Part shown: in pieces, positions 6,342 to 16,813 of the stretch
Layout of the letters: each line of letters begins with the position of its first letter
Position numbering within the stretch: the first letter of the stretch is position 1
IMG/VR virus record: IMGVR_UViG_3300010338_000991
From: a virus
Strand: one strand, 5' to 3'
Length of the DNA stretch: 29,228 bases
Position numbers and translations under genes: made by a program
Notes under the pieces: generated by a model
The model's input: only the letters and a program-made list of their open reading frames with translations
What the model was told of the DNA's origin: nothing
The model's database searches: none

Positions 6342-6468
6342 AGACCGAGTATCTAAACTGTGAGCAACTTATTTTAACGCGCGCTTCCTGTCAAGAGATT
6401 TGTTTTGCGCAATAAAAAAAGCCCCAGCGAAATAAACAACCGAGGCTTTGGAGATACCGAACCAGCTT

Positions 6469-6897
6469 TCATGATCGAATGTTATTTGTCCACTCTTTTC
6501 TTTCCCACACTCGCATAATGATTGCGTCATTGCATCCGTATCGCTTCCACGCATGAATGCACACAATTTGGCTGTCATCGTTCCAAATCACGCCGTTAAG
6601 CGCATCGAATACACCCTTACATAGATTATCTATGTCTGGTCGCGATGGCTTATATACGCTTCTTTCTCGCAGTTCTGCGATGCGCTTCTTCCCCCACGAT
6701 TTTGGATGTTTCCAAACGAACTCGACAGACACATACAGATCACCGGATAGCGATCGCATGTCTTGAGTGGTTTGCGCCAATGCCATTGCCGTTATCGCTT
6801 TTTGGTAATCGGTTACGGCTTTGCTCTGGTAGCTGTGCTTACCCATGCGAAAGCTTTGCTTTGCTTTCGGCGTGATGTCGAAATATAGGCTGATCAT
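6469..6897 (-). CDS. rusA: RusA-family Holliday junction resolvase (ORF track extends to 6909)
   Basis: Motifs KPSRPDIDNLCKGVFDALNGVIWNDDSQIV typical of RusA; GGAG 8 nt upstream of the ATG at 6897. Confidence 0.8.
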   Translation of the reverse strand: MISLYFDITPKAKQSFRMGKHSYQSKAVTDYQKAITAMALAQTTQDMRSLSGDLYVSVEFVWKHPKSWGKKRIAELRERSVYKPSRPDIDNLCKGVFDALNGVIWNDDSQIVCIHAWKRYGCNDAIIMRVWERKEWTNNIRS

Positions 6898-7060
6898 TTT
6901 CCGCTCCATAGAAAGATCAGGAAAAATATGATGCCTATGCCGGCAGCGATGTTCAGGTGTGGAATGTTCACCCGAAAAACATACGCAATCACCAGCGGAG
7001 CCTCTGCAAGTGTCGCTATCAGCAGACTTATATCTGCTATTTTATGTTTCAATTTCTTAC

Positions 7061-7288
7061 TCATGATTTTCTCCTTTGCATTGCCATGTCTTTATCCGCC
7101 AAAAGCGCGTCCGTAATCTCCTGGAAGTGCTTACCAATCCCATTGCGCTCGTATCCATTCGTTCCAGCTAGCCATGCGTAGAATTGCCGATCACTGATGT
7201 TATGTATCCGGCAAAATCCGGTGATCGAATATCCGCGATCCCGTATCGCCTTCTTTATTTCCATTCCTTGATCTTTTGTTATTCTCAT
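7061..7288 (-). CDS. Small putative HTH DNA-binding protein (75 aa)
   Basis: Start ATG overlaps the upstream stop (TAATG) with GAGG upstream; helix-turn-helix-like segment YSITGFCRIHNISDRQFYAWL. Confidence 0.4.
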   Translation of the reverse strand: MRITKDQGMEIKKAIRDRGYSITGFCRIHNISDRQFYAWLAGTNGYERNGIGKHFQEITDALLADKDMAMQRRKS

Positions 7289-7566
7289 TATCTTGCCTCG
7301 CAATTTTCGCACACGTAATAATTGCCATGATCAGCCACCTGCTTCCATGTATATAGTCTGCCGCATTTGCCACAGCGAGCTATGCTATGCGCTTTGATTT
7401 TTTCGTATTCCTTGCCTAAGTTTTTTAGCGATCTGCGCAAGGCAATTTCTGTCTCTGCGTGTTTCAAACTCGCTCTTATCCTGTGCTTATCAATTAGCTT
7501 TGCTCGGCGGGCAAAATAACCCGCCAGAGCAATTGCGATAATGGTTATGCATATCATTATGATCAT
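7288..7566 (-). CDS. Membrane-anchored zinc-ribbon protein (about 92 aa; ORF track extends to 7608)
   Basis: AAGGAG 8 nt upstream of ATG 7566, which overlaps the RecT stop (ATGA); N-terminal TM helix; C-terminal CGKCG..CENC. Confidence 0.4.
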   Translation of the reverse strand: MIIMICITIIAIALAGYFARRAKLIDKHRIRASLKHAETEIALRRSLKNLGKEYEKIKAHSIARCGKCGRLYTWKQVADHGNYYVCENCEAR

Positions 7567-8534
7567 TTTGAATCTCCTTCTAAACTTGTTTTGTTTTCGT
7601 TCAGCCATGTTTCTACTTCGTCAAGTGCGGCATGGCGTGTCGCGCTCTGGATTTTCGGCAACCACTCTTCTAATTCTTCTCCGGTAGCAAGTTTCGTCAT
7701 TCTTTCAATTAGCTCGACTTGCCGCTCTTTTATTGTTGGTTTTGCGTTCGCACCGCGCAATATCGCGGCGAGATGGTTATGGTATTCATATAGATCATGG
7801 AAGTTCGTGCATTCGGCAATCATGCTACACCCTAAATGTTTTTGGATGCTCGAATGCCTGCGAACCTCATTATCAAAGCCGTCAATTTTGTTATCCACAA
7901 GGTTTCGCATGACGCCCTGTGTCGCTTTCATGAGCAGATCAAACTCTGATTCGCCTGCCGGGGCAGGATCCGGAACCGACTCGAACTCCGCGTCAATCGC
8001 ATCGTGATGCGCGCTTGCTTCCGGCACTTCTTGCGCATCGTTACCAGAAGTAACAAGATCAACAGCCTCTTCATGAGACAGCATGCCAAACACGATATCC
8101 GGGAACAGATCATTGACCGCGTAGCTAATCGCTCGCGCCTTCAGCATGCGTTGCGGGTATTTGCGCCAATTGTCCTTTTTAGCAAGCTCGGCACGGATCG
8201 CGTCTTGCATTGTAAATGTGATCTCTACGGACTCAACTTGGCCATCCCTGCGCTTGCGGCTCATTTTCACGATGCATCGTTCTGCAGTGGCATCAATCTC
8301 ACAGCCATTGTATTCAGGGTGGTTCTTGGCCAGTGCCAACTTGAGATCGGCCTTTAAACTCGGCATGCCGTTGACATTGTAGATATTCATCAGTGCTGTC
8401 GCTGCGTTTAATCCGAGTGCCTGGCCAGCACTCAGAACGAATAGCACGTCAGCAGGGTTCCTGTGAGCATGGAGCCGGCTTTGCGCCAGCTCCTTCGAAA
8501 TCGATTGCAAGGCTACAAGATCGTTCATCATCAT
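7563..8534 (-). CDS. recT: RecT/Bet-like single-strand annealing protein
   Basis: Segment NWRKYPQRMLKARAISYAVNDLFPDIVFGMLSHEEA resembles the conserved core of lambda Bet and E. coli RecT; AAGGAG upstream of ATG 8534; acidic C-terminal extension. Confidence 0.65.
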   Translation of the reverse strand: MMMNDLVALQSISKELAQSRLHAHRNPADVLFVLSAGQALGLNAATALMNIYNVNGMPSLKADLKLALAKNHPEYNGCEIDATAERCIVKMSRKRRDGQVESVEITFTMQDAIRAELAKKDNWRKYPQRMLKARAISYAVNDLFPDIVFGMLSHEEAVDLVTSGNDAQEVPEASAHHDAIDAEFESVPDPAPAGESEFDLLMKATQGVMRNLVDNKIDGFDNEVRRHSSIQKHLGCSMIAECTNFHDLYEYHNHLAAILRGANAKPTIKERQVELIERMTKLATGEELEEWLPKIQSATRHAALDEVETWLNENKTSLEGDSK

Positions 8535-8548
8535 CTTAATTCTCCTTT

Positions 8549-8881
8549 TTATTTAGTTAATATTTGTTTTACCATTTGAACCATGTCTATCGGCGTAGAA
8601 AGCGCATCCTTCACGCGATCTACCATCTCATCATATGCGGCGGCTCTTGCGGCGCACTCAGGGCAAAGATCGTCTTCGTCAAGTTCGCCTTCAACAAACT
8701 CTTTCTCGCAATCATCGCAGAAATACGCCTCATAAACATCAGCCGATCCGCATACTGGGCATATGTTTATGTATTCATCTTTCTCCCAGTTTTCCGAGCC
8801 ATTGCCGATGCGTCCAGCACGATACAACACTGTATCCGGATCGTAAAACTGTGATTCGCAGTCACTGCATTTCCATGTCAT
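8549..8881 (-). CDS. Cys-rich zinc-ribbon protein (110 aa)
   Basis: CSDC..CPVC and CDDC..CPEC pairs; GGAGG upstream of the ATG. Confidence 0.45.
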   Translation of the reverse strand: MTWKCSDCESQFYDPDTVLYRAGRIGNGSENWEKDEYINICPVCGSADVYEAYFCDDCEKEFVEGELDEDDLCPECAARAAAYDEMVDRVKDALSTPIDMVQMVKQILTK

Positions 8882-9663
8882 CTTTTCCTCCCTGTTCTGG
8901 CTTTAATGTGGTATGCAATATCGAATTCATTGCAGAAACCAATAACTGTCTCAACTGCGTTATTATAGAAGCTCTGATAATCAGGATAGGTGGATACCAA
9001 CTTGTTATAATGCAACCTGCCAAAGATAATCCTATCAGTGAAGGAAACTTTATCAAGTAATGACACCAAGTCTTGCTTTACTATATTGGGCGTTGGATAT
9101 GGTTCTATACTCACCCACGTTCTACAACCCAGATCATGCAAATTCTTTATGCTTGCCAGGCGGGTAGGGTAATCTGCGGAAAATGGTTCATATTGCTTTC
9201 TGAAGCCTTCATCGAAAGATACCAGTGAAATGCCCCATTCATGCTTTCTATCAAACCTCGATAGTTCCGAAGGCAGTAATCCTTTGGTTAGCGCTGTGCA
9301 CTTGATGCCATAATGATCCAGTAGCTTGATGATCTCGAGGCTCATTTTCGTTACTTCAGGGTATCCACTCATGAATGGGTCTGTGGTAAAGCAAAGATGC
9401 ACGGACTTAATGCTTTTCTGCTTCCTTGGGATTTCTTTCTTCAGCAGATCAAGAGCGTTTTCAACCAGCCTTGGTTTCAGCCAATCGTCGTAGTCTTTTA
9501 TCCTGCCAAATCTGCGAGCCATCATGAAGGCGTAACAGGGATAAGTGCAACCATGAGAACAACCTAACACATGGTTTATTGTGAAGTCTCCGTATTCTAC
9601 ACCTGTTTTATAGAGAAGCTGTTTTCTTAAATTAGTCTTGCTGGTTGTTTCCTTGTCGCTCAT
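8878..9663 (-). CDS. Hypothetical protein with N-terminal Cys cluster (GCSHGCTYPCYA), possibly DUF5131 (phage Gp37/Gp68)-like
   Basis: N-terminus EYGDFTINHVLGCSHGCTYPCYA resembles, from memory, the conserved start of DUF5131 proteins; not a canonical radical-SAM CxxxCxxC. Confidence 0.4.
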   Translation of the reverse strand: MSDKETTSKTNLRKQLLYKTGVEYGDFTINHVLGCSHGCTYPCYAFMMARRFGRIKDYDDWLKPRLVENALDLLKKEIPRKQKSIKSVHLCFTTDPFMSGYPEVTKMSLEIIKLLDHYGIKCTALTKGLLPSELSRFDRKHEWGISLVSFDEGFRKQYEPFSADYPTRLASIKNLHDLGCRTWVSIEPYPTPNIVKQDLVSLLDKVSFTDRIIFGRLHYNKLVSTYPDYQSFYNNAVETVIGFCNEFDIAYHIKARTGRKR

Positions 9664-9869
9664 AGCTCTATCTCCAGTTGTTCAGGATTATTGAATAACT
9701 GGTTTTCATCATTAGAGTCAGGTATCCACAGTAGCTGTTTGCTATAAACACAGCCGTTGTCGCGGTGTATCCAAGAGTATCCGTAGATCGGGCTGTAGTC
9801 GCAGGGCGGCATTAAGGTGTGGCATACGGGACAAAAACGTATAGGTGGGCGTTCTCGTTTGTGTTCCAT
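9660..9869 (-). CDS. Small Cys-rich protein (69 aa)
   Basis: AAAGGAG 6 nt upstream of the ATG; CPVC..PPC motif. Confidence 0.4.
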   Translation of the reverse strand: MEHKRERPPIRFCPVCHTLMPPCDYSPIYGYSWIHRDNGCVYSKQLLWIPDSNDENQLFNNPEQLEIEL

Positions 9870-9875
9870 TGTTTT

Positions 9876-9906
9876 CTCCTTTATTTTATTGTGTTTATCA
9901 TTTCTG
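9876..9906. repeat. Copy 1 of a duplicated 30-bp element (minus-strand sense ATGATAAACACAATAAAATAAAGGAG)
   Basis: Near-identical to 11919-11955; both copies end in an SD sequence directly upstream of a minus-strand start codon. Confidence 0.6.
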
Positions 9907-10005
9907 TCAAGTCCTGAAATGGCGGACTGTTTTTTAGCTTTTGTTGTTTAGCCTAAGCCCCTACATATAATCCCGCTACCGAGCAGGGTTGGCAAAAAGT
10001 GAAAC

Positions 10006-10878
10006 TTACGCAGCATCATATAGTTGGGCAGGTATCTGGTAGTTAATGCCGGCATGCAGGCGACAGTGATTGTAATCGTGGATGGACAATTTGATCAACT
10101 CCCTGGCCAGGCGTTTGCTCTTCAGGACCTTATGGATCAGGTATTCATGCTTCAGGGTATTGAAGAAGCGCTCTATTTTGGCATTGTCATAGCAGTGGTT
10201 TTTCCCCGTGAAGCTTATAGTCAGGCCATGGGACTGGAGTTTTTTCAGATATCGATAGGAACAATACTAGCAGCCATGGTCTGAATGGTGGATGGCTCCT
10301 TTCAGTTCCGGCGTGCTTTTCAAAGCCTTATTAAGGCAATCCAGAGCCCCGTCAGTGCGCAGATTGTTGCTGATGTTGAAGCTGAGTATCTTACGGGAAT
10401 ACATGTCCATCAGAACCGACAGGTAGAGAATGCCTTCGGTGGTGTGGATATAGGTGATGTCGGCGCAGATCGCCTGGTTGGGACGGGTTATAGGTAGTCC
10501 CTTGATCAGGTTTTCAAAGCTGGAGTCATAAATACCGGGGATAGACGTGCGAACCTTCCTGTAACGCCGGGACAGGACCAAGCCGCGATCGCGCAGGATC
10601 CTGTGGAGTTTGTCACGGCCGATCCCAATCCCCAGGTTGGACAACTCATGCCACAGCTTGCGGATGCCGTAAGCAGGATGCGCCGCCCTGATCTTAAGTA
10701 CCTCGTCCACAATCATCTGCTCGTATTCCGCAACCTTCTGGGAGGATGCCAGGGTCTCATAATACCAGGACTTGCTCTTGTTGAGATTCTTGCAGATGGC
10801 GCTCATGGACGCTTTGACAGAAGCCGCTCCAGCGTTCTTCTTTGCTCGGGGGACAGCCTGGAAAGTGAAGTTTTTTTT
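10006..10878 (-). pseudogene. IS3 transposase OrfB (DDE catalytic domain) interrupted by one in-frame TAG at 10267-10269
   Basis: Translation reads ...AIHHSDHGC, then TAG, then a further 86 in-frame codons (YCSYRYLKK...GKNHCYDNAKIERFFNTLK...) up to TAA at 10006. Confidence 0.7.
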
Positions 10879-11218
10879 CAGCCTCGCTGATGTTCTCGTT
10901 GACCACCTCCACATAGCTCTGAAGGCAAATATTGTGCAGGGTGACAGAGGCCAGGGCGGACTCCAACTCCTTGATCCGGTCTTTTTGCTCTTGCAGTATC
11001 GATTTCTCGTCTTTCATCTCAATCCTCACGTATCTTCTTATTACTTGATCCTTTCCGTATTTGCGGAGCCACTTGTAGATCGTGGTTCTGCCATTGATTT
11101 CATAAAGACGGGTTGCCTCTGCTATTGTCAACCTTCCTTTATCAATCTCCTGAACAACTTTCAACTTGAACGCCTCACTGTAGCGAAGCGTTACCTGGGC
11201 GATGGACTGTTTGGCCAT
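10757..11218 (-). CDS. IS3 transposase OrfA (HTH and leucine-zipper part)
   Basis: AAGGAG upstream of ATG 11218; N-terminal HTH-like LTIAEATRLYEINGRTTIYKWLRKY; coiled-coil segment; overlaps OrfB in the -1 frame. Confidence 0.8.
   Translation of the reverse strand: MAKQSIAQVTLRYSEAFKLKVVQEIDKGRLTIAEATRLYEINGRTTIYKWLRKYGKDQVIRRYVRIEMKDEKSILQEQKDRIKELESALASVTLHNICLQSYVEVVNENISEAEKKLHFPGCPPSKEERWSGFCQSVHERHLQESQQEQVLVL
10871..10877 (-). other. Programmed -1 ribosomal frameshift site A_AAA_AAA for OrfAB fusion transposase
   Basis: Minus-strand codons GAA AAA AAA in the OrfA frame; OrfB frame is open in -1 from this point. Confidence 0.5.
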
Positions 11219-11258: not shown

Positions 11259-11286
11259 CAGCCAGGCGGGAGATCCCGCCTGGCTG
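11259..11286. repeat. Perfect 12-bp-stem hairpin (CAGCCAGGCGGG agat CCCGCCTGGCTG) abutting the IS end
   Basis: Inverted repeat read directly; 10 nt downstream of the stop of gene 11297-11539; no U-tract on either strand. Confidence 0.5.
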
Positions 11287-11296
11287 GGTAAATGTT

Positions 11297-11539
11297 TCAG
11301 CATCCGCAGGGAGTTCCCCCGCGGTATATTCTACCGCAGGAGTACTCCTCTTCCTCCCACTGACACCCGCAATGGGTGCAGTGCACCACCCTTGTTCCGA
11401 GATAGTAGGTCCCGTTGGGACCCCTATCTTCATCGCAAACGAGGGGGTTCCGATACTCTGCGAGGAGGTATTTCTCCTCGATGAGCCTTGCGGCGAGAAG
11501 ATCGCCGCAAAGATTTGTTAGGGTCATTTGCTTTTTCAT
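11297..11539 (-). CDS. Small Cys-rich protein (80 aa)
   Basis: AAGGAG upstream of the ATG; CTHCGC..C..CGC cysteine pattern. Confidence 0.4.
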   Translation of the reverse strand: MKKQMTLTNLCGDLLAARLIEEKYLLAEYRNPLVCDEDRGPNGTYYLGTRVVHCTHCGCQWEEEEYSCGRIYRGGTPCGC

Positions 11540-11918: not shown

Positions 11919-11955
11919 CTCCTTTATTTTGTTATTGTGTTTATCATTTTTTCTG
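11919..11955. repeat. Copy 2 of the duplicated element; overlaps the last codons of gene 11924-12307 and the SD of the small ORF
   Basis: Minus-strand sense CAGAAAAAATGATAAACACAATAACAAAATAAAGGAG; compare 9876-9906. Confidence 0.6.
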
Positions 11956-12307
11956 CCAGGTGCTTGCGATCTCGCATTGCGAAACCGTAGCGCAAAACGG
12001 CAATCAACACATCCATCTCGTCGGGAATTCCGCGAGCCTTGACAGCATCAATGTGGTCAAGCAGATTCGGATAGCGAATTTCGCCCTTGCGCACCGGTGG
12101 CTCAGGATAGCACTCGTGACAATAGACGCTACGAGTGCATGCTTGCCAAGCGAACGGATCAATCGAATCGTTCATAATCGCGTCATAGTGACCGTGCGCG
12201 CCTATGTAATCGTAATCAGGCACGCGGATCATGCCGGAACCGGAACACCAAGCGCAAGCCGGATTGTGAACGATCGTGCCGGTAGGCTCTTTCGCTTTGA
12301 AACTCAT
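11924..12307 (-). CDS. Hypothetical protein (127 aa)
   Basis: ORF whose start overlaps the upstream stop (ATGA); no motif recognised. Confidence 0.45.
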   Translation of the reverse strand: MSFKAKEPTGTIVHNPACAWCSGSGMIRVPDYDYIGAHGHYDAIMNDSIDPFAWQACTRSVYCHECYPEPPVRKGEIRYPNLLDHIDAVKARGIPDEMDVLIAVLRYGFAMRDRKHLAEKMINTITK

Positions 12308-14352: not shown

Positions 14353-14820
14353 GTGAAGACAAATAAGCTTAAATTCAATCCCAATAATCCTCGCAAATGT
14401 AGTAAAGACAAGCTTGAAAAACTTATGCGCTCAATCGAATCATTCCCTGAAATGATGAAGTTGCGCCCAATGGTTTACGATCCCGAAACCATGTATGTTT
14501 TAGGCGGGAATCAGCGCCTCGCAGCTATTAGAAAGCTCGGCATGAAAGACATCCCGGATGAGTGGACGATCGCCGCCACAGATCTCACCCCAGAACAGCA
14601 AAAGGAATTTGTTCTGCGAGATAATGTGCAGTTCGGCGATTGGGACTTTGAGATGCTGTCTGCTGAGTTTGGCGAATTTGATCTTGAAGAAATGGGCATG
14701 GATATGCCAGAGATAGAGGCAGAAGAGCCATATGTCCCAAGTGAAACTAAAGAAATTGACACAGATATAGCATTTGATCACAAGTGCCCAAAATGTGGAT
14801 TTGAGTTTAATGAATCTTAG
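14353..14820 (+). CDS. ParB-like nuclease (ParB/Srx) domain protein with C-terminal zinc ribbon
   Basis: GGAGG 5 nt upstream of a GTG start; N-terminal KLKFNPNNPRK...MYVLGGNQRLAAIRKLG resembles the ParBc domain; C-terminal CPKCG. Confidence 0.6.
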   Translation: MKTNKLKFNPNNPRKCSKDKLEKLMRSIESFPEMMKLRPMVYDPETMYVLGGNQRLAAIRKLGMKDIPDEWTIAATDLTPEQQKEFVLRDNVQFGDWDFEMLSAEFGEFDLEEMGMDMPEIEAEEPYVPSETKEIDTDIAFDHKCPKCGFEFNES

Positions 14821-15829
14821 ATATAACATTAAAGACATTGCAGATATAGAAAAGACGCATAAAGCATTTTCTACTTTTGCGTGTGGTGGGGGATCGTCAA
14901 TAGGCTACAAACTGGCAGGGATTGAAGTTATTGGAGCAAATGATATTGATCCTGAAATGAAGTGGCACTATACAAAAAACCTTAACCCATCGCTATATTA
15001 TTTATGCCCAATATCTGACATGATATCAATGGAATTGCCAAACGAGCTTTTTGCCCTTGACATATTAGATGGATCACCTCCATGCTCAACTTTTAGCACA
15101 TCTGGGAACAGAGAAAAGGATTGGGGCAAAAACAAATACTTTAGGGAAGGTCAAGCAAAGCAAGTTCTTTCTGACTTGTTTTTTGACTACATAGACCTTG
15201 TCAAAAGGCTACAGCCAAAAGTATCTATATCAGAAAATGTAACTGGAATTATCAAAGGAAATGCTAAATATTACGCCAAAACAATAGTGCAAAAACTTGA
15301 TGAAGCAGGATATGTTACTCAAGTTTTTCAGATAAACGCAGCAAATTGCGGTGTCCCTCAAATGAGAGAACGCGTGTTTTTTATAAGTAGGCGCAAAGAT
15401 ATAGACAAAAAACCACTTGTATTATCACCAAAAGAAAAAATACTTACTGTATGGGATGCTATACACGACATACAGGATTTGACAGATGATGAGATTAGGG
15501 ACACAGCCCCAAATAACACTGACTTGAAATATTGGAACAAAACCAAGCCAGGATGCAGCTATTCAAGCGTTCACGAAAAAGGCAGCTTTTTTTCTTATTA
15601 TAGGCTAAACAAAGACAAACCAAGCAACACTATCCAAGCAAACCATCAATGTTATACTCACCCATCAGAATGCAGAAACCTAACTTTTAGAGAAGTCAAA
15701 AGACTGTCGTCATTTCCAGATGATTACGAAGCAAAAACAGATAACATCGGGAAGTATATGTGCGGAATGAGTGTGCCTCCATTTATGATGTATCAAGTAG
15801 CAAAAGCAGTAAAAGAGCAGTGGCTATAA
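14810..15829 (+). CDS. DNA (cytosine-5)-methyltransferase (ORF track starts at a TTG at 14774)
   Basis: Motif I FACGGGSSIGYKLAG, catalytic PC motif GSPPCSTFS, ENV motif ISENVTG, QxRxR motif VPQMRERVFF. Confidence 0.85.
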   Translation: MNLRYNIKDIADIEKTHKAFSTFACGGGSSIGYKLAGIEVIGANDIDPEMKWHYTKNLNPSLYYLCPISDMISMELPNELFALDILDGSPPCSTFSTSGNREKDWGKNKYFREGQAKQVLSDLFFDYIDLVKRLQPKVSISENVTGIIKGNAKYYAKTIVQKLDEAGYVTQVFQINAANCGVPQMRERVFFISRRKDIDKKPLVLSPKEKILTVWDAIHDIQDLTDDEIRDTAPNNTDLKYWNKTKPGCSYSSVHEKGSFFSYYRLNKDKPSNTIQANHQCYTHPSECRNLTFREVKRLSSFPDDYEAKTDNIGKYMCGMSVPPFMMYQVAKAVKEQWL

Positions 15830-15865
15830 TGTGTGATGAGACAATATCCGGACAAGGAGTATCGA

Positions 15866-16813
15866 ATGATTAGAACCGCTGAATGTGTAACGCCGAAGCA
15901 TCCAGACAAGCTGTGCGACCGCATAGCTGATGCCATATTGACGGAGGCAATAAAGCAAGATCCAAACGCCAGAACGGCAATAGAAGTTTGTGCCGGTCAT
16001 GGCATTGTGACCGTTCTGGGCGAAATGACAACCACAGCCTTTGTTGATGTTGCTGACATAGCCCGCAGGATTACAGATGGTGAGTGCGGCGTGCAAGTCA
16101 ATATTGTGCGACAGTCACCCGACATAGCGATGGGAGTTGATGCCGGAGGCGCCGGAGATCAAGGCATTATGATCGGATATGCCTGCAACGAAAATGATAA
16201 TTTTATTCCTACGGAATTAAACCTCGCCAGAGATTTGTGCCAATTCATTTATATGCGACACGAAGTTGACGGCAAAACTCAAATCACAATGGACGGCAAT
16301 AAAATATCAACTATTGTCGCAAGCTTTCACAACACAAAGAGCGGAGATCTGAGATCCCTTGTGCACCAGTGGCTTGATGGCAGAAAATGCGAATCGATAA
16401 TGTGTAATCCTGCCGGCGATTGGAAAACCGGCGGGCTTAACGCTGATTCTGGCGTAACGGGAAGGAAACTTGCCATAGACAACTACGGAACCAGAACACC
16501 CATTGGCGGCGGCGCATTTAGCGGAAAAGACCCCACCAAAGTGGATCGCTCTGCCGCGTATATGGCAAGAAAAATTGCTGTCGATATCTTGCGCCAGAAA
16601 AATGCAAAAGAAGTTATCGTTTCGCTTGCTTATGCAATCGGCGTTCCTGATCCGGTAATGACGGAGTGTATTGCCGATGGAAATCATGTTGACATTTCAC
16701 ACTACAGCTTGACACCAAAAGCAATTATCGATGCGCTTGGGCTTCGTGATATTGATTATGAAAAAACAGCAGCGTGGGGGCACTTCGGCATCGGCATGCC
16801 GTGGGACAAATAA
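15866..16813 (+). CDS. metK: S-adenosylmethionine synthetase (MetK), compact form of about 315 aa
   Basis: AAGGAG 6 nt upstream of ATG 15866; motifs KHPDKLCDRIADAILTEA, GAGDQGIMIGYA, DGKTQIT, GGGAFSGKDPTKVDRSAAYMARKIA and C-terminal TAAWGHFG, aligning with bacterial MetK. Confidence 0.85.
   Translation: MIRTAECVTPKHPDKLCDRIADAILTEAIKQDPNARTAIEVCAGHGIVTVLGEMTTTAFVDVADIARRITDGECGVQVNIVRQSPDIAMGVDAGGAGDQGIMIGYACNENDNFIPTELNLARDLCQFIYMRHEVDGKTQITMDGNKISTIVASFHNTKSGDLRSLVHQWLDGRKCESIMCNPAGDWKTGGLNADSGVTGRKLAIDNYGTRTPIGGGAFSGKDPTKVDRSAAYMARKIAVDILRQKNAKEVIVSLAYAIGVPDPVMTECIADGNHVDISHYSLTPKAIIDALGLRDIDYEKTAAWGHFGIGMPWDK

Follow-up and report, generated by a model that had tools for sequence, protein, structure and literature searches.

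A partner-less radical-SAM gene in a digester phage, captured from a host restriction island

We analysed a 29,228-nt stretch of viral DNA (IMG/VR record IMGVR_UViG_3300010338_000991; hereafter the window), a phage contig of about 29.2 kb that is complete or nearly so, with contigs of almost equal length (29,156-29,231 bp) in at least five anaerobic-digester metagenomes. In its early region, among small cysteine-rich proteins and recombination genes, lies a gene for a 261-aa protein of the radical S-adenosylmethionine (SAM) superfamily (rSAM). We show that this gene was recently captured from a host restriction island without tcmP, the gene that precedes nearly all of its relatives, and that it has been under purifying selection since the transfer. 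The original prediction, made from the letters of the window, had described the region as a cluster of small zinc-ribbon proteins with a 'DUF5131-like' protein, guessed to be an Fe-S or metal-binding enzyme.

Results

Capture of the rSAM gene from a host restriction island

Relatives of the rSAM gene were collected from viral and genome collections, giving 145 loci. In 137 of these tcmP (TIGR04474, 'three-Cys-motif partner protein') lies immediately upstream on the same strand, and five of the eight loci without it begin at the rSAM gene, so that no upstream sequence is present. The window contains no TcmP in any frame (hmmsearch E > 0.2), and the adjacency to tcmP found for the orthologues, including the donor-type locus L163, is absent from it. 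Two chromosomal contigs from samples of the same kind, L163 and L164 (41 and 86 kb), represent the donor side. In both, the rSAM gene follows the genes for a TcmP protein (PDC-M30A, E 1e-65), a type IIG enzyme and an HKD-Snf2 protein in an island flanked by ordinary cellular genes. As the same island architecture is seen in a metagenome-assembled genome (MAG) labelled Cloacimonetes, we infer that the phage host probably belongs to the Cloacimonadota. The direction of transfer, from host to phage, follows from the paired state being ancestral across phyla and from the Cloacimonadota chromosomal copies being the nearest relatives. The gene and its captured part are:

8878..9663, minus strand: 261-aa radical-SAM-superfamily protein, solo 'three-Cys' partner of TcmP, with C35-x3-C39-x3-C43
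8893..9627, minus strand: host-derived core of the rSAM gene, codons 13-257, 93.7% nucleotide identity over 735 nt to L163/L164

Homology to the host copies stops within 1-2 nt of the position (8893/8892) from which the sequence again matches the related phages L162 and L159; this point is the ribosome-binding site of the next gene, zn110. From both breakpoints it follows that the first 12 and the last 4 codons are phage-specific. The outermost invariant residues of the family, R13 and T257, mark the two ends of the captured segment. Phage and host copies differ by 30 synonymous and 16 non-synonymous nucleotide changes (pN/pS 0.14), with a nucleotide divergence of 6.3% from the donor-type copy. 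On the phage branch, polarised with three outgroups, we count 12 synonymous and 7 non-synonymous changes, none of them at an invariant position. The identical 261-aa protein is encoded on 14 contigs from several digesters.

We also considered that tcmP had once stood upstream of the rSAM gene and been destroyed by the IS3-family insertion sequence (IS). This was rejected, as no TcmP remnant is present in any frame; in addition, the host homology begins only at codon 13 and the slot in L162 holds unrelated small open reading frames (ORFs).

The 261-aa protein is a radical-SAM protein with unusual cysteine spacing

The 261-aa protein passes the threshold of PF04055 Radical_SAM (31.4 against 29.5 bits, E 2.6e-7, residues 29-204) and contains the partial (beta/alpha)6 TIM-barrel core of the superfamily. 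Its AlphaFold2 model, computed with 81 homologues, has a mean pLDDT of 93.2 and a pTM of 0.89. The top structural match in both searches is spore photoproduct lyase (SPL; Foldseek E 6e-7, TM 0.66, 14% sequence identity). Hidden Markov model matches and predicted fold thus support the guess of an Fe-S or metal-binding enzyme, and the profile and structure-based searches that had been proposed as a check gave a radical-SAM family and an SPL-like fold for this protein, while the small proteins of the cluster returned only sub-threshold matches.

The cysteine triad C35-x3-C39-x3-C43 (GCSHGCTYPCYA, residues 34-45) is one residue longer than the canonical Cx3Cx2C motif, which the protein does not match owing to the insertion of an invariant Pro42. 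The cysteine cluster named in the original prediction is therefore real, but does not stand at the start of the protein. The Cx3Cx3C spacing is invariant in the 81 aligned homologues and is shared by 116 of the 120 closest database proteins (the remaining four gave no motif) and in 82 of 97 cluster representatives having a detectable motif; remoter relatives (35-48% identity) show the canonical spacing. The family is large, with more than 6,600 matches in a word-indexed search and 133 clusters of 50% identity at E <= 1e-30, and identity remains at about 60% across Bacillota, Cloacimonadota, Spirochaetota, Synergistota, Actinomycetota and Alphaproteobacteria. The phage protein keeps all invariant family residues and is basic (pI 9.1).

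Sequence searches of the PDB with the rSAM protein and with TcmP gave no matches, and no SPL model is among the Pfam and NCBIfam matches. Compared to SplB (PDB 4FHC), the phage protein is shorter (261 against 340 aa), has Cx3Cx3C in place of Cx3Cx2C, and differs in partner and genomic context. The label 'DUF5131-like' proved weak. PF07505 (phage Gp37/Gp68) reaches 20.8 bits where 28.9 are required, and its alignment is limited to profile positions 2-87 of 243, in the N-terminal part around the cysteine cluster. Both kinds of protein nevertheless partner TcmP, and both are placed in RadicalSAM.org megacluster 5 together with SPL and MJ0683-like proteins (PMC9477430). The top NCBIfam matches are the Rv2578c and PA0069 'DNA repair photolyase' families (COG1533) and radical SAM mobile pair protein B (TIGR04470), which share a similar motif context, GCxHGCxYC(Y)A, but have canonical Cx3Cx2C spacing and are matched far below their cut-offs (42.3 against 430, 40.6 against 360 and 31.5 against 410, respectively). 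Membership of DUF5131, SPL, Rv2578c/PA0069 and mobile pair protein B was rejected, all being below threshold. The PADLOC models PDC-M30B and PDC-M41B, which represent DUF5131-type partners, match weakly (E 2e-6 and 1e-5), the alignment being confined to ~85 N-terminal residues. The 261-aa protein appears to belong to a distinct partner clade, nearer to canonical radical-SAM enzymes than the DUF5131-type partners are.

Homologues of the protein carry the label 'DNA repair photolyase' in their source annotation. From its sequence and model the enzyme is predicted to bind a [4Fe-4S] cluster, to cleave SAM and to act on DNA. Action on DNA is suggested by the SPL-like fold, the basic pI, a partner resembling base-flipping methyltransferases (MTases) with a winged helix-turn-helix (HTH), and the restriction-modification neighbours.

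TcmP and the two-gene system

Orthologues of the phage gene are encoded directly downstream of tcmP, and the two also occur naturally fused in proteins of about 631 aa. In its model (mean pLDDT 94) TcmP has a class-I methyltransferase fold, for which RlmJ/DUF519, an rRNA m6A methyltransferase, is the nearest match, and after it a winged helix; its DxFxGxG (motif I) and DPFG sequences are invariant. TcmP is far less conserved (36-45% identity) than the rSAM protein (~60% across phyla). PADLOC lists TcmP as subunit A of the candidate defence systems PDC-M30 and PDC-M41.

The pair usually lies beside restriction-modification genes, with type III Mod/Res and a type IIG restriction endonuclease-MTase plus HKD-Snf2 protein as recurrent neighbours; serine recombinases, DUF2800 and other mobile-element genes also recur. 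In the true phages L073 and L065 the pair follows a ParB-MTase and MetK, a SAM synthetase, and stands just before the terminase gene. Literature searches for DUF5131, TcmP, PF07505/Gp37Gp68, PDC-M30/M41, Cx3Cx3C and SPL-like defence returned annotation mentions only, and experimental work on the TcmP/three-Cys pair was not found there. The sole match for 'CX3CX3C', a NifB review, does not describe such a motif family and was discarded. The TcmP/three-Cys pair is widespread and is listed only as a candidate defence system.

In some Cloacimonadota MAGs (L080, 7986-9854; L082, 206-2071; L085, 7998-9830) the rSAM ORF is fused to a protein of ~360 aa that belongs to no known family and elsewhere follows the rSAM gene (L009, 1881-2960). 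The host system may have this protein as a third component.

A variable accessory slot and a second solo copy

The region of the rSAM gene is a variable accessory slot of the early replication and recombination operon. The sister phage L162 shares the module from RecT to RusA at 80-93% nucleotide identity, and its corresponding slot contains two unrelated small ORFs and neither the rSAM gene, p80 nor the IS. Lar-like restriction-alleviation and pentapeptide-repeat genes lie near zn110 in related phages (L162, 940-3177; L159, 5393-6004; L160, 5731-5970), which suggests that the slot collects anti-restriction genes. The interleaving with RecT and RusA genes reported in the original prediction was confirmed. 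The recombination genes of the window and two genes that use or make SAM are:

6469..6909, minus strand: RusA Holliday-junction resolvase (Pfam PF05866, E 3e-25)
7563..8534, minus strand: RecT-like single-strand annealing protein (PHROG 561, E 1.4e-21; 80% nucleotide identity to L162)
14774..15829, plus strand: C5 cytosine DNA methyltransferase (PF00145, E 3e-47)
15833..16813, plus strand: phage SAM synthetase MetK (three S-AdoMet_synt domains)

A second partner-less rSAM copy is found on an unrelated low-GC phage contig (L029, 6863-10903). There a C5 MTase gene begins 6 nt after the rSAM stop codon and is followed by a single-stranded DNA-binding protein and an ORF for the N-terminal domain of MetK (a fragment); a RecU-like resolvase and an unassigned 295-aa protein with CxxxCxxC also flank the solo gene. 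Both solo-copy phages thus carry a C5 MTase and MetK, while the corresponding counts among the other 143 loci are 4 and 2. MetK also accompanies the complete pairs of L065 and L073. With two solo loci, the association of solo rSAM, C5 MTase and MetK is a lead and not a result. The phage C5 MTase is a possible functional companion of the rSAM enzyme, and MetK could possibly supply its cofactor.

Small cysteine-rich proteins

Four short genes of the early region encode cysteine-rich proteins:

7288..7566, minus strand: zn92, with an N-terminal transmembrane helix, a coiled region and a C-terminal CxxC-x17-CxxC zinc ribbon
8549..8881, minus strand: zn110, an acidic double zinc-ribbon protein with four CxxC (pI 4.05, net charge -16)
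9660..9869, minus strand: p69, a small Cys/His protein (C13xxC16, C23, H35, C40)
11297..11539, minus strand: p80, an 8-Cys orphan with a good Shine-Dalgarno sequence and only one CxxC (CTHCGC ... CGC)

Paired CxxC motifs, predicted for all four, are present in zn92 (two, at residues 65 and 86) and in zn110 (four, at residues 5, 41, 55 and 73), but not in p69, which combines its single CxxC with two lone Cys and two His, nor in p80.

zn92 is conserved in L162 (~87% identical, E 5e-51), where its Cys and His residues are all retained. The eight Cys of zn110 are nearly invariant across 19 homologues, and its 77 detectable family members, all at least 55% identical, are confined to early regions of related phages, where they lie upstream of a RecT or AAA_24 recombinase gene, next to pentapeptide-repeat or Lar-like genes and without the 261-aa gene. 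p69 has a homologue in L162 (E 2e-11) that keeps every Cys and His; it is a singleton at 90% clustering and the scan of viral contigs gave nothing. For p80 no relatives were found by cluster lookup, viral-contig scan or comparison with the related phages.

All Pfam, NCBIfam, PHROG and PADLOC matches of the four proteins are sub-threshold. The zinc-ribbon models score below their cut-offs for zn110 and zn92 (DZR_2 20.9 against 27, Zn_ribbon_recom 17.9 against 25.3, ECs_2282 and others likewise), and the PADLOC matches of zn110 to HEC-08 and of an HTH protein of the operon to DrmC (E ~1e-3) were judged spurious. Homology to well-characterised housekeeping phage proteins was not found for the cluster.

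zn110, zn92 and p69 are conserved only in relatives of the phage and are predicted to be lineage-restricted zinc-binding proteins with no assignable function. The earlier statement that no protein of the cluster has an assignable function thus holds for these small proteins, but not for the 261-aa protein, for which family, TcmP partner and donor locus can be named. Based on its acidity and its neighbours, a DNA-mimic or anti-restriction role is conceivable for zn110. We rejected p69 and zn110 as substitute partners of the rSAM enzyme, as both occur without the rSAM gene in related phages. The small zinc proteins are therefore independent phage genes that do not serve the enzyme as partners. 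ATGA overlaps couple p69, the rSAM gene and zn110 (p69 stop with rSAM start, rSAM stop with zn110 start); since p69 and zn110 occur without the rSAM gene elsewhere, this coupling follows from the insertion site of the cassette.

Layout of the early operon

All ORFs of the cluster were confirmed on the minus strand at the predicted coordinates, and independent gene callers recover the same ORFs on at least five metagenome copies of the 29.2-kb contig. The early block comprises minus-strand genes from ~13987 down to 6469. An HTH/excisionase-like protein, a Lin1244-type replication protein and a DnaC/IstB-like ATPase are followed by p127, p80, the IS3-family element, p69, the 261-aa protein, zn110, RecT, zn92, a 75-aa HTH protein, a 56-aa membrane protein and RusA. 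The plus strand opens with the C5 MTase and the SAM synthetase, directly before the terminase and portal genes. Searches of the minus-strand operon with Pfam and PHROG detected no exonuclease partner of RecT (RecE, YqaJ or lambda Exo type), and megablast of 6400-9950 against GenBank phages gave no match. Further features of the operon are:

6894..7064, minus strand: 56-aa membrane protein, conserved in L160-L162 (20-member cluster)
7061..7288, minus strand: 75-aa HTH protein (83 aa if GTG 7312 is the start), with sub-threshold HTH_Tnp_1/HTH_28 and PHROG 925 matches (cluster of 187 members)
9883..9910, minus strand: near-consensus sigma-70-like promoter, TTGACA-16-TAAAAT, upstream of p69 and between the IS and p69 (consensus scan only, 11/12 positions)
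10006..11218, minus strand: coding part of the IS3-family element separating p80 from p69 (HTH_28 and rve Pfam matches on called genes)

In the IS3-family element, orfB has an in-frame TAG (10267-10269) that falls precisely on the conserved Q of HSDxGxQY (HHSDHGC*YCS), and an A8 slippery run is found near 10872-10880. The gene calls of the element are split alike in all metagenome copies, which indicates that it has probably been immobilised by the nonsense mutation. A perfect 13-bp hairpin (11259-11286) lies just past the p80 stop codon at the IS boundary. p127 (127 aa, 11924-12307, minus strand) has a DnaJ-type CxxCxGxG (CAWCSGSG) and a second CxxC, and matches no family.

Discussion

Phages use orphan DNA methyltransferases and other host-derived modification genes against restriction. 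The gene described here resembles these in being a modification-type gene that comes from a host restriction locus and is predicted to be expressed early; it differs in encoding a radical-SAM enzyme, one half of a two-protein unit, whose role in modification is putative. The suggestion that early genes of the cluster are anti-defence factors gains indirect support for the 261-aa gene only, from its origin in a host defence island and its slot shared with Lar-like and pentapeptide-repeat genes; nothing of the kind was shown for the small zinc proteins.

We tentatively favour, with a little less than even confidence, that the rSAM gene encodes a recently captured and still functional DNA-directed enzyme serving a counter-restriction of the modification type. 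A modification-type role is favoured since other phages carry the complete pair amid orphan methyltransferases and MetK and since both solo-copy phages also encode a C5 MTase and MetK. The phage would retain the gene to escape the restriction island from which it came. By the likeliest route the enzyme would install or complete a host-type mark on phage DNA, working with the TcmP of the host or with the C5 MTase of the phage, and the phage MetK would supply SAM. Alternatively, it may undo or block the action of TcmP.

Several points weigh against this proposal. The DNA substrate and the role in defence or modification rest on inference from fold and neighbourhood, and the Cx3Cx3C triad is non-canonical, so that cluster binding and SAM cleavage with such spacing are only predicted. 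One half of a nearly obligate pair may be inactive when alone, and where the host already supplies both halves, it is hard to see what a further rSAM copy would add. The association with MetK and the C5 MTase is based on two solo loci, and neighbour counts are inflated by related mobile elements. Finally, over so short a time the low dN/dS could partly reflect selection in the host lineage.

A bolder reading, possible but in our view rather doubtful, is that the TcmP/three-Cys pair is an unrecognised DNA-modification or writer-eraser system with a new Cx3Cx3C radical-SAM enzyme, and that the solo phage copy would be the first radical-SAM counter-restriction enzyme. The solo enzyme would then either install the protective mark of the host, perhaps by acting on 5-methylcytosine produced by the Dcm-type enzyme of the phage with SAM from MetK, or erase a mark made by TcmP.

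By analogy with writer-eraser toxin-antitoxin pairs such as DarT/DarG, the phage might instead have stolen only a protective half. TcmP would in that case be a harmful or sensing writer, and the rSAM enzyme would reverse its product or titrate TcmP into non-productive complexes. This would fit with the rSAM half alone having been taken although tcmP lies immediately upstream in the donor, with a fold nearest to a lyase that directly reverses a DNA lesion, and with the lower conservation of TcmP, as expected if TcmP is the component engaged in an arms race. The fusion proteins point to a physical complex, with which a free subunit could interfere, and anti-restriction-type genes occupy the same slot in related phages. 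However, toxicity of TcmP and toxin-antitoxin behaviour of the pair are unsupported, an antitoxin that needs an Fe-S cluster and SAM would be expensive and out of the ordinary, and bona fide phages hold the full pair near MetK and orphan MTases before the terminase, an arrangement resembling self-modification and not a suicide module. We therefore consider an antidote or subunit poison unlikely.

It is less likely still that the gene is a mere passenger, accidentally and recently captured, without a role in the phage, inactive in the absence of TcmP and simply undecayed. The low divergence from the donor-type copy, the position next to an IS element in a variable slot and the almost obligate pairing with TcmP elsewhere are what such an accident would leave. 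On the other hand, the breakpoints enclose precisely the conserved core R13-T257, and the gene has gained a new start codon and is translationally coupled to both neighbours. The dN/dS of 0.14 includes the phage branch, the identical protein recurs on contigs from several digesters, and the unrelated phage L029 holds an independent solo copy.

A role as a DNA-repair accessory, in which an SPL-like enzyme would mend a radical- or UV-type lesion or process ends for RecT/RusA recombination in place of a missing exonuclease, is highly improbable: the gene is directly upstream of zn110 and RecT in the operon of RusA, where no exonuclease was detected, the L029 copy adjoins a RecU-like resolvase, and photolyase annotations and the top structural match point the same way, but L162 has the same RecT-RusA module without the gene, so that the module can do without it, the family is associated with a methyltransferase-like partner and restriction genes and not with repair genes, the protein is 80 residues shorter than SPL and only distantly similar to it in sequence, and the habitat is a dark anaerobic digester.

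Returning to the counter-restriction enzyme that we favour, TcmP/three-Cys systems are a known but uncharacterised kind, and what is new here is a phage-borne, host-derived rSAM copy without its partner. The small zinc-ribbon proteins around it are phage orphans of an ordinary kind, of little interest on their own. The solo gene links the enzyme to DNA-modification genes, namely the C5 methyltransferase and MetK, and its Cx3Cx3C spacing, which departs from the radical-SAM signature, is worth biochemical testing, for which the solo protein is a compact construct. By taking one half of the pair, the phage has performed a natural experiment on which component is useful alone.

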